IMG/VR virus record: IMGVR_UViG_2529293039_000014
DNA from: a virus
Taxonomy: Duplodnaviria; Heunggongvirae; Uroviricota; Caudoviricetes
DNA: 20,633 bases
Strand: one strand, 5' to 3'
Of the stretch, positions 15,001 through 18,000 are shown piece by piece. Position numbers: made by a program. Position 1 is the first letter of the stretch; the number at the start of each line of letters is the position of its first letter.

Positions 15001-18000
15001 GGCCTCTGGTCGTGGATTTCCACAACCAGAAAATAATGGTGATGCATGAAAAATAGAAACGCTTATAAAACCGCATTATTAATGGCTAATGCAGGATACT
15101 GGTCAGTTGCAATACTGTTTCTCAGAAAAGCATACGGGAAATAACAAATGGCATGTACAACCATTTATAAAGATCGTCGCCGCATGGTAACAGCGGCACT
15201 CCGGCGGATGCAACGTAAAACAGGTAGTAATCTGCTCGTCGTTGACCTCCCGGACGGAGAAATAACAACGATAGAAATAACTGAACAGTTCATGAACCAG
15301 TTGTTATTACGATTTGAGGGTCTTACCCGTGTTGAATATGGACGGACGGAAGGAGAAGCAACAATCCGTACCGCATACCAGAATGCCATCGGTATTAATC
15401 AACACACGGAATATCTCACTGAATCAGGGAAACTGATAGTGGACGGCCTTTTAAAAGAGGTTGTTGACTACGTAAAAGAGAAATATATCAGTGGAGGAAT
15501 TAACTGATGTCTGATTTATCCCCTCTTATACACGAAAAAGTACAGATCATTATGACGATTGAAAATGGTCAGGTAATAAATACCCGTAAAGTTCACAATA
15601 ACGAGATGATTGCCAGCATGGATACCTTCTTATGGATAGCAAAGAAAGCGGGATATCAGGTAATCGCTCCTGATCTGGAGGAAATCGGTGACATTAACAG
15701 CAATACGAATTCCTGAGTGGGTGCACCTGCAGGCGGTCCGTGTTCTCCGCCAGTTCAGAGCCAGACGAATTCATCCCTGTCGTATGCACGGCTCCGGAAA
15801 CCTGAGTCTGAGGGTTAATCGCCGCTGGCGGCTGCTGTCCCGAGACGGCGGCCAGAACTGGGAAGTAATGAGCCATGAACGATACAGCAAAGTTAAGGAC
15901 CGGAAATGAACAATAAACCTTCAAACCAAAAGGAGAGTATTGATGATTAATTCAACCATTACCCCTGAACCTACATTAACAGGCATCCGTTTTGGTAATC
16001 GAATTATTGGTTATTCAACTGCGGTTCGCCAGATCGACAACGGTAACTATGACAAACGAATTCCGGACGGGCTCGATCTGATAGCTTGCATTATGGAAGG
16101 GATTGAAAGCGGCTGGTTTATGCCGTGTATTGAAAAACAAATCATCCTATGGCGCTGGCTTGTTGTCGCCGTGTTCATTGCTGAGGAGCAGGAGAAGAAC
16201 GGGACTGTCGATGTTCAGAATGACAAGGGCGGCGTAGATACAGCCGTTGTATACACAGGAAAACCCGGTTCAATCAGCATTTATCCATGGTCTGAGCGCT
16301 TCGCGCTCGCTAACCATATCGAGGCGGGCGCAATTGAAAAATACGGGCCTGACGTTGGCCAGCAGATGGCGCTGCGTATGTATCAGGACATGGTTGTAAC
16401 TGACGAGAAATGCGGATTCAGGCTGTCAGCGATGGGCCGGGAGGGACTCAACATACTACATGACAGCTTCATTGAACTGATTCAGAAAGACGGTATGCCA
16501 GACATGCCGGTTATGCACTGAGGTGGACGAAAATGAACATAGTAACGATCAATAACAAACAGCTTCCGGCAGTCGAATATCGCGGTCAGCGTGTTGTGAC
16601 GCTGGCGATGATTGATGAAGTCCACCAGCGACCGGAAGGAACAGCGCGTGCAGCATTCAACCGAAACCGTGAGCATTTCATCAGCGGTGTGGATTATGCC
16701 GAATTAGGTGCGGACGTAATACGTACGGACCTCCCGGAAGGAACATTCTCTAAATTTGCACCATCAGGGATTGTACTTTTTGAATCAGGTTACCTGATGT
16801 TGACGAAGCCATTCAATGACGCCCTTGCCTGGCAGGTTCAGCGCGAACTGGTTAACAGCTACTTCCGCACTCGCACACCGCTAACGGAAATCGAGATGAT
16901 CGCTGCGATAGCCGCCGACGCTGTTCGTCAACAGAAGCGCCTGAATCATGTGGAAGAACAGCTCGAAACAGTCACAGAAGCGGTGGAAACCATCAAACGC
17001 GGAAATATGCGCGCCGGATATGTCGGTTATCGCCAGGTGGTCGCCAAAAGCGGAATGACTGATGCTAAGTGCCGCAATCTGGTCAATGCCTACAGCATCC
17101 CAACCGATACGCACGAATTTATGACACCAGATGGTCTTCTTTCGCGCCGGGCTATCGTGGAGCTGGAGCCATTCATGAAAGCATTTCATCAGATGATGTC
17201 AGAGGCAGAGCCACGTGGTACCCGCTGGTATCACCCGAAGATGGGGCTGTTTCAGGTGATTGGTTGGGAGGGTAAATAATGTCACTCATTACACAAAATT
17301 TCCGCCTCAATGCGCTGGCAAATCAGTATGCGGCGGCACTGCACAACCACATATCCGCCACCAGCGGTGGTCATTTCCTGATTAATGTCAATGGGCAATC
17401 CATACGAGTAAACATCATCGGTGGGGTTAAAGGCATCAGGGACTTAATCGATGGTTATGCTCTGAAGGCTATCAAAGAAAATTACCCCCAATGGGAAGCC
17501 GTTGGTATTCAACTGTTAAGCAAATGCGTTCGTGGAAACGAGCTGACGCAAAGCGGCAAAGAAATCTGGCAGAGCATGGTCAACGACATGAGCGATACCG
17601 TTATGGGGAACATGTAAATGAAAATCCAATACCAGGACTATGGCGCCGTAGCGAACATCGTGATCACCAGTTCCTGCCTGACATTGCAAAAGCATAACCG
17701 CGTTGTTGATGCGGTGCTGTTTAATGTACAGGGGATCTCTGAAAACCGCAGCGGCTTTTTCTGGGTTAAGTCATCGTTGTCAGGAAAAACACGCGACATC
17801 CTGCGCGCCTACAAAATCGTACAGCGGGAGGCAAAGTGATGAAGTCATTCCTCCTGTCCATACTGTTTAGTCTGCTGCTGGCGTCCGTCGTTTTCGGTAC
17901 GCTGATTGAATATAAATTTTTAATGAATTACTGAGGTGCGGGGTGGGCAAGATCAAAAACCCAGTTGTACTTATCCATAAGCGAGAAAATAGTGACTCCT

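Follow-up and report, generated by a model that had tools for sequence, protein, structure and literature searches.

A protein with the RelE/ParE fold is nearly always interpreted as one half of a toxin-antitoxin pair. Catalysis by RelE is attributed to Arg61 of the central strand, together with Arg81 and Tyr87 near the C-terminus (PMC2807027), and in Proteus vulgaris HigB the catalytic residues are His54, Asp90, Tyr91 and His92 (PMC5027501). RegB of phage T4 is an early phage endoribonuclease with the RelE/YoeB fold; it acts on mRNA in connection with the ribosome and has no known antitoxin (PMC3014915, PMC2807027). The subject here is a 73-amino-acid (aa) open reading frame (ORF) in the virus record IMGVR_UViG_2529293039_000014, a 20,633-nucleotide (nt) stretch of Caudoviricetes DNA that was analysed at full length and is termed the window below. 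The ORF is a member of the Pfam family PF24732, 'ParE_like', and the gene is referred to by that name. The favoured reading is a solitary, antitoxin-free phage effector of the early operon, silenced by the prophage repressor and most likely a ribosome-linked mRNA nuclease; taken as a whole, this reading is given an even chance.

The gene, its family and its predicted fold

The 73-aa ORF is a genuine, coding and conserved phage gene. The original prediction had described an ORF at 15688-15909 with a GTG start preceded, at a spacing of 6 nt, by a GGAGG Shine-Dalgarno (SD) sequence, and had singled out the motifs S-x-R-V-N-x-x-W-R-L and EVMSHERY. All of these are present, the first motif as S-L-R-V-N-R-R-W-R-L, and the two motifs form the most conserved part of the family. 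The GTG is the most upstream start available to the ORF. Relatives have ATG or GTG at the equivalent codon, each with its own differing but equally placed SD-like motif. In gap-free alleles of the gene (66 distinct close alleles from viral contigs), the variable sites at codon positions 1, 2 and 3 number 32, 18 and 65, and the mean ratio of nonsynonymous to synonymous polymorphism (pN/pS) is 0.086, which indicates strong purifying selection. The protein contains 14 arginines, 19% of its residues.

The record of Escherichia phage phi467 leaves the 73-aa ORF unannotated (LN997803.1 26633-26858; L001 8418-8643), and the ORF is annotated in other phages. On the opposite strand, an antisense 76-aa ORF (15694-15924, minus) spans the whole ParE_like gene. 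It was considered as a hidden partner and rejected: relatives do not maintain the reading frame, which shrinks to as little as 28 aa within the same subfamily, and the antisense ORF is therefore seen as a by-product of composition.

The match to PF24732 scores 70.8 bits against a gathering cut-off of 24.4 (E-value, E, 9.9e-20) and places residues 11-68 on model positions 2-67 of 67; all 57 diverse relatives examined match the model too. The protein also falls in phrog_1525, a PHROG family of unknown function, and close relatives carry the NCBI/UniRef name 'ParE family toxin-like protein'. An NCBIfam search of the 73-aa protein gave no match. A profile search of 1.8 billion representative proteins yields only 113 clusters, nearly all of 69-75 aa, and a word-indexed search yields 303 homologue clusters, of which every one with a named source comes from Enterobacterales. 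Relatives of the gene are found on 265 viral contigs. The literature searched contains no paper on PF24732 or on 'ParE family toxin-like protein', and in one study relatives are called 'HigB-like', without experiment on them (PMC7556043). A literature search on orphan, phage-encoded RelE toxins turned up nothing of relevance.

These lengths bear on the suggestion, made in the original prediction, that the ORF might be an N-terminally shortened toxin remnant. Relatives are about 72 aa long and the family as a whole measures 69-75 aa; the protein is therefore full-length for its family and not a truncated toxin. A longer toxin gene in decay, or a chance ORF within GC-rich sequence, would fit a protein shorter than canonical toxins and the missing annotation in the phi467 record. 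Such a reading is refuted by the conservation data (a Pfam model covered end to end, relatives of uniform size, low pN/pS with third-position variation), and the structural model described below is confident and the antisense frame unconserved; it is left with next to no probability.

An AlphaFold2 model of the 73-aa protein is confident, with a predicted local distance difference test (pLDDT) score of 89. Its elements are, in order, strand 2-5, helix 10-24, strands 39-42, 47-51 and 57-62, and helix 63-71. The RelE/ParE superfamily is recognized by a compact alpha/beta fold in which N-terminal helices pack against a sheet of three to four antiparallel beta-strands; the model has this arrangement, and on that basis the ParE_like protein is predicted to have the RelE/HigB/ParE toxin fold. 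Its structural matches are Thermus thermophilus RelE (6.4), Escherichia coli HigB (5.9), PrpT (5.8) and Mycobacterium tuberculosis HigB1 (5.7), followed by YoeB (5.5), YafQ and P. vulgaris HigB (both 5.4) and ParE1/ParE2 (5.0). Foldseek returns the same toxin families with weak E-values. Solved toxins of the superfamily have 84-104 aa and two N-terminal helices, and the ParE_like family has one.

Residue conservation was assessed in the 57 diverse members, which share about 25-60% identity. Ala16 and Arg48 are invariant (57 of 57 each). Tyr66 is kept in 53, with Phe in three more, His63 in 51, Ser or Thr at position 62 in 51 and Glu64 in 38. Every one of the members is basic, with a median net charge of +8.8. 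Arg48 is probably the counterpart of RelE Arg61 and YoeB Arg65, to judge from the strand motif and from the hhalign and hmmsearch register with P. vulgaris HigB. His63 and Tyr66 would be the counterparts of the C-terminal catalytic residues (Arg81 and Tyr87 in RelE; Asp90, Tyr91 and His92 in HigB). The three residues stand at matching places in the order of secondary-structure elements of RelE-type enzymes, and since these would be the places of catalytic residues, the analysis leans to an RNA-directed activity. Independent annotators have named relatives 'HigB-like', 'mRNA interferase HigB' and 'killer protein'.

Neighbouring genes and cassette edges

The features around the ParE_like gene are collected in Table 1.

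Table 1. Features of the ParE_like locus and of the operon proposed to contain it (positions in the window)
Feature	Position	Strand	Basis or remark
CI-like repressor, HTH_3 and Peptidase_S24 domains	13240..14007	+	Pfam; presumably controls the early operons
Two sigma-70-like promoter matches just 3' of the CI-like repressor gene; candidate pL-like promoter	14070..14141	+	Consensus match
119-aa ORF, phrog_1737	15148..15507	+	Abuts ParE_like in 20 close loci without the 69-aa gene
Upstream acidic ORF, 69 aa, isoelectric point (pI) 4.8, phrog_340 family	15507..15716	+	Last 9 codons lie inside the ParE_like gene
Shine-Dalgarno GGAGG, 6-nt spacer to the GTG start (15688)	15677..15681	+	Within the upstream ORF; direct reading
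29-nt overlap	15688..15716	+	TGA at 15714-15716 ends any upstream ORF in that frame
ParE_like gene, 73 aa, pI 11.9, net charge +12	15688..15909	+	Predicted RelE/ParE-superfamily fold without the second N-terminal helix
Arg48 codon, strand motif W-R-L-L-S	15829..15831	+	Column counts
His63-Glu64-Arg65-Tyr66 codons, start of the C-terminal helix	15874..15885	+	Column counts, model secondary structure
Relic of the start (ATGAACAATAAACC) of a 135-140-aa gene, which has an ATGA overlap with ParE_like in relatives	15906..15919	+	Junction comparison with L002, L003, L014 and L067
Downstream ORF, 193 aa (192 aa from ATG 15943), phrog_1515 (E 9e-89), unknown function	15940..16521	+

The original prediction described an acidic 69-aa ORF overlapping the toxin-like ORF from upstream by 29 nt, and a downstream 192-aa protein lacking a helix-turn-helix (HTH) domain, with no HTH antitoxin adjoining. 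This description is confirmed: the upstream ORF lies as stated (15507-15716, pI 4.8), the downstream protein (193 aa from 15940) has no HTH and a Pfam search with it is empty, and no HTH antitoxin adjoins the 73-aa ORF. It went on to propose that one of these neighbours might be an unconventional partner in a toxin-antitoxin or abortive-infection module, a proposal that the distribution of both genes does not support. To look for partners, 149 loci that carry a ParE_like gene were collected from viral contigs and phage records, and their flanking ORFs were called. Clustering at 70% identity or more divides ParE_like into 14 subfamilies, of which the closest to the window comprises 85 loci, and the 69-aa family was sought with a hidden Markov model within 2.5-3 kb on either side of each ParE_like locus. 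The 69-aa family is upstream in 62 of the 149 loci and was not found within that distance in the other 87, namely 23 from the closest subfamily and every locus of the remaining 13. In a Salmonella prophage present in many assemblies, the 69-aa gene is followed immediately by the next gene, with ParE_like absent. One such locus (L157, 2198-2613) has directly after the 69-aa gene a 135-140-aa gene that is apparently frameshifted, within a 415-nt gap without a called gene.

Two unrelated upstream families, with proteins of 69 to 156 aa, have the identical 29-nt overlap, and its length is constant because a TGA occurs at +27 to +29 in the conserved 5' end of the ParE_like gene. In the 69-aa protein, residues 9-55 form a conserved core, and the tail encoded by the overlap is variable and predicted to be disordered. 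The protein belongs to no Pfam family, and its model matches no solved structure or antitoxin.

The downstream side is also varied. The 193-aa gene follows ParE_like in only 15 of 84 close loci, and downstream genes of seven families occur in the close set alone. The phi467 record splits the 193-aa gene into pieces of 138 and 429 nt, a split that hints at a differing sequence or a wrong gene call. Across the 14 subfamilies the neighbours are unrelated on both sides, and the phages concerned are HK97-like, lambdoid, P2-like or without an annotated integrase. The gene upstream of ParE_like encodes a ParB-like protein in Serratia phage OS31 and a Dam methylase in the P2-like phage SW3. In a lambdoid Klebsiella phage the preceding annotated gene, about 300 nt away, encodes a Kil homologue. 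Unrelated hypothetical proteins are upstream in Sortsnevirus, Murrayvirus, Smarc4 and phages of roughly 92-95 kb.

A type II toxin-antitoxin system has an adjacent antitoxin gene that is conserved with the toxin gene, and a DNA-binding antitoxin (HTH, ribbon-helix-helix, AbrB or Phd/YefM) that autoregulates the promoter of the pair. The ParE_like loci show neither. The HTH (HigA) gene that comes after the toxin gene in HigB systems is missing, and so is the ParE combination of a PF05016 match with an upstream antitoxin of the ParD/PaaA2 type. PADLOC-DB gave no match for the 73-, 69-, 193- or 119-aa proteins. A 142-aa XRE-HTH protein at 14154-14582 was considered as a distal HigA-like antitoxin and set aside; four ORFs lie between it and the ParE_like gene, and it stands directly behind the candidate promoter sites. 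No annotated HTH/XRE regulator is beside ParE_like in the distant phage records examined, where homologues of the 142-aa protein were not searched for. This protein, encoded downstream of cI, has weak PADLOC matches (RmrA, HTH_VI, capH), which extend over the HTH domain only.

The 69-aa and 73-aa genes could nonetheless be a two-gene type II toxin-antitoxin or abortive-infection module, with the 69-aa protein as antitoxin and translation coupled by the 29-nt overlap. The two genes are small, overlap and lie in the antitoxin-first order, and their products are oppositely charged (pI 4.8 versus 11.9); these features agree with such a module, as do the disordered tail of the 69-aa protein, a feature of many antitoxins, and its gene directly upstream in 62 of the 85 loci of the closest subfamily. 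However, the gene is absent within 3 kb at 23 loci of that same subfamily and from all 13 others, and it also occurs without the toxin gene. Its tail is an unconserved read-through into the next gene, and an unrelated family has the same overlap. The pair has no promoter-like site immediately before it and gives no PADLOC match. A module of this kind retains a low probability because most of the closest relatives carry the 69-aa gene; it is not the best reading, since neither neighbour behaves as a cognate partner. That ParE_like is a solitary effector without a dedicated antitoxin is quite probable.

Homology points to a gene that moves alone. The ORF had been described as a GC-rich island, suggestive of a recombined-in fragment. 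The local contrast is real: G+C content (GC) is 55.4% in the ORF and 36-44% in the genes just upstream, part of the excess arising because arginine codons raise GC at codon position 1. In the window as a whole (mean 48.1%) the value is only partly exceptional, being at the 89th percentile of 222-nt windows and similar to that of the structural genes (54-57%). Recombination, on the other hand, is supported, as DNA homology to other phages is confined to the ORF. Phage AsXd-1, for example, has 93% nucleotide identity by megablast over 15697-15918 only. At the upstream edge, homology among relatives begins at the start codon, and the ribosome-binding regions differ. At the downstream edge it continues about 9 nt past the stop codon. 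Because homology runs between these limits, ParE_like is regarded as a single-gene mosaic cassette. In the window, four codons remain from the beginning of the 135-140-aa gene, and the ribosome-binding site of the 193-aa gene follows directly upon them; this relic, listed in Table 1, marks both the downstream limit of the cassette and a deletion undergone by the window phage.

The gene is rare in complete E. coli genomes (21 of 5426), where it is chromosomal. Matches in a plasmid database are mostly 37-43-kb non-mobilizable replicons of phage size, with a few larger Klebsiella or Pantoea plasmids, and include no predicted conjugative plasmid. The gene is also present in phage records without an annotated integrase or repressor, such as sortkaff, in which most genes are unnamed. 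Two distant representatives, P0169 and P0200, have no matches in viral contigs. Records of Aeromonas phage AsXd-1 (MH178096, L003) and Elizabethkingia phage EKP1 (OM284015) show 93-95% nucleotide identity with the window phage in the ParE_like or the ORF6N gene; this means either very recent exchange or doubtful host assignment in these records. In other phages DNA methyltransferase genes of the MT-A70, Dam and Dcm types repeatedly adjoin ParE_like or stand one or two genes away from it (L085, 2785-3447; L151, 1485-3615; downstream in several of L089-L136). DNA methyltransferase genes are typical company of early anti-restriction functions.

Phage setting and the proposed role

The window belongs to an HK97-like temperate phage of E. 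coli, and phi467 (LN997803) has 99.9% identity to its positions 15300-16700. The minus strand carries a Cro-like gene and the genes for replication, the Q antiterminator and lysis; on the plus strand, the CI-like repressor gene is followed by tightly packed small ORFs and then by an ORF6N antirepressor and the integrase. From this gene order the ParE_like gene is placed in the equivalent of the lambda early-left operon. The promoter-like matches at 14070-14141 are TTGACA-18-TAACAT (10/12) and TTGACT-17-TAAATT. No plus-strand terminator-like site was found between 14000 and 17400, and no promoter-like site directly upstream of the 69-aa/73-aa pair.

In the proposed mechanism, ParE_like would be transcribed with the early-left operon only after loss of the repressor or on infection, and its translation may be coupled to that of the upstream gene, whichever this is. 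The product would then act on the host as a toxin-type effector, most likely by cleaving or binding mRNA on the ribosome through Arg48 with His63 and Tyr66. An antitoxin would be unnecessary, because the prophage repressor would silence the gene and a cell that produces the protein would be doomed. Given the absence of a dedicated antitoxin, an RNase-type protein, that is, a ribosome-linked mRNA nuclease, is an even bet, poisoning of gyrase is rather doubtful, and a non-catalytic binding role takes the remaining share.

Several results weigh against the proposal of a repressor-silenced nuclease effector. One is the 69-aa gene carried by most loci of the closest subfamily, as described above. 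Another is that the promoter consensus matches are no commoner than in shuffled sequence; assignment to the early operon is for this reason an inference, and the gene may be expressed in the lysogen. At the level of sequence, the family has no significant match to known toxin families: PF05015 (HigB-like_toxin) is reached by one of the 57 members (E 0.031) and PF05016 (ParE_toxin) likewise by one (E 0.042). A PDB profile search reaches a single toxin, P. vulgaris HigB, below threshold (E about 1), with the alignment hP.k..gY.S..V..WRi; the remaining matches of profile and single-sequence searches of PDB sequences are noise of the BNR-like 'DGGxxW' type, to Ycf48. When the family is aligned by hhalign, P. 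vulgaris HigB gives 19%, E. coli HigB 6% and E. coli RelE 1%, values that assign no subfamily and that were obtained with query sequences of which the P. vulgaris segment 53-85 alone is corroborated, by the PDB profile search. The residue equivalences come from motif and strand register and not from superposition, and His29, which aligns with HigB His54, varies among H, N, I, Y, K and F. In the literature searched, no experiment on any member was found. 'HigB' and 'ParE' are so far mere labels for the family. The HigB-type toxin of the original prediction accordingly stands at the level of fold (RelE/HigB/ParE), and membership of the HigB family proper is unsupported by sequence, given the PF05015 result.

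One alternative keeps the solitary effector and changes the target, such that the protein would be a ParE-type poison of DNA gyrase and would not act on ribosome-bound mRNA. Many ParE proteins end in H-x-R-M-D, which the C-terminal H-E-R motif of the 73-aa protein recalls, and Pfam and NCBI classify the family as ParE-like. But PF05016 is barely touched by the family, the best structural matches are RNases (RelE 6.4, HigB 5.9), the second N-terminal helix is missing, and the conserved Arg/His/Tyr set and extreme positive charge better suit RNA binding. Gyrase poisoning by a solitary effector is, on this evidence, unlikely.

Perhaps the protein has no catalytic function and is a basic module that binds RNA, DNA or the ribosome, non-toxic alone, serving as a phage regulator or counter-defence decoy. 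A harmless protein is the simplest explanation of the missing antitoxin, and the protein is indeed shortened by one helix (73 aa versus 84-104 aa in solved toxins), its equivalent of HigB His54 is unconserved, and its gene is often among early accessory genes beside DNA methyltransferases. What the family conserves, however, is not just the core but the polar residues of RelE-type nucleases (Arg48, His63, Glu64, Tyr66), a weak objection, as binding could need them too. The non-catalytic derivative is considered quite unlikely.

Other features of the window are as follows. In the Cro position (12911-13183, minus) a 90-aa protein matches the Pfam family 'YdaS_toxin' (E 6e-13); the family name is possibly misleading, as the protein has an HTH/Cro-like fold. 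An element of the insertion sequence family IS66 occupies 1-2586, with ORFs at 1-648 and 648-995 followed by a 523-aa DDE_Tnp_IS66 transposase at 1015-2586. It abuts the terminase large-subunit gene (2613-3500, minus), whose 295 aa comprise the GpA ATPase part only. The terminase was apparently cut by the IS66 insertion, and the prophage may therefore be packaging-defective. The integrase appears split into a 126-aa ORF with the Arm DNA-binding domain only (19348-19728) and a 290-aa ORF with the Phage_integrase catalytic domain (19761-20633). The gene could be frameshifted or interrupted, and the phi467 record holds a second integrase further on. An AT-rich 310-aa ORF (GC 35.6%, third-position GC 31%) and an 80-aa ORF are found at 6513-7684 on the plus strand; the lysis cassette and the Q antiterminator flank them on the opposite strand. 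Neither ORF has a Pfam match. Their placement is moron-like, and they could be lysogen-expressed accessory or defence genes. No Rfam family or tRNA was detected in scans of the entire window.

Comparison with known systems

The 73-aa protein is by direct membership a protein of PF24732, PHROG 1525 and the NCBI 'ParE family toxin-like protein', with the same length and the same setting in phages and prophages of Enterobacterales. The family is already catalogued, and the label 'toxin-like' is already in RefSeq. The literature searched has nothing on the family as a shortened fold, on its restriction to Enterobacterales phages, on the 14 partnerless subfamilies or on the conserved Arg/His/Tyr set. 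The family moves partnerless through the early regions of unrelated phages, which argues that phages have adopted a toxin fold as an effector that works alone. Tentatively, and with the balance somewhat against it, PF24732 might form a class of its own, of RelE-fold effectors that are minimal in size (about 70 aa), lack an antitoxin, are carried as single-gene cassettes by varied enterobacterial phages and shut down host translation early or counter defences; such proteins would be phage weapons and not addiction or abortive-infection modules. If so, structural and mechanistic studies would gain a minimal form of the fold of just 73 residues, and prophage surveys would need caution before scoring genes of this kind as toxin-antitoxin or defence loci. 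Should the protein prove harmless, ParE_like is an ordinary small accessory gene. A specialist in toxin-antitoxin systems or phage accessory genes would not be surprised by the gene.

Like RelE, YoeB, YafQ and HigB, the 73-aa protein is strongly basic, and its invariant central-strand arginine and conserved His and Tyr at the C-terminal end would correspond to catalytic residues of these enzymes (PMC2807027, PMC5027501). It differs from them in being shorter (84-104 aa there), in lacking the second N-terminal helix and in having no significant sequence match to them. RelE-type toxins have an adjacent RelB, YefM, DinJ or HigA and an autoregulated two-gene operon, whereas the ParE_like gene has no such neighbour and is situated in a phage early operon. 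With ParDE, PaaA2-ParE2 and PrpT it shares a database name, and the small acidic upstream ORF recalls the PaaA2/ParD gene order. Unlike ParE toxins, however, it has no PF05016 membership and a shorter N-terminus, and the upstream ORF is not conserved and resembles no antitoxin.

Closer parallels are found among phage genes. The lambda kil gene is a small, non-essential, repressor-controlled gene of the early-left operon, harmful to the host and without an antidote gene. The comparison is limited to genetic logic, as kil is unrelated to ParE_like in fold and target. T4 RegB is the closest functional analogy for a solitary phage protein with a toxin fold, again by logic and not by homology. RegB was not among the fold-search matches of the 73-aa model; it is about twice as long, possesses an additional helix at the N-terminus, has two histidines, at positions 48 and 68, as catalytic residues, and shows no sequence similarity. 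If the proposed role is true, ParE_like would stand beside T4 RegB as the second, and far more widespread, case of a RelE-type protein used by phages on their hosts.

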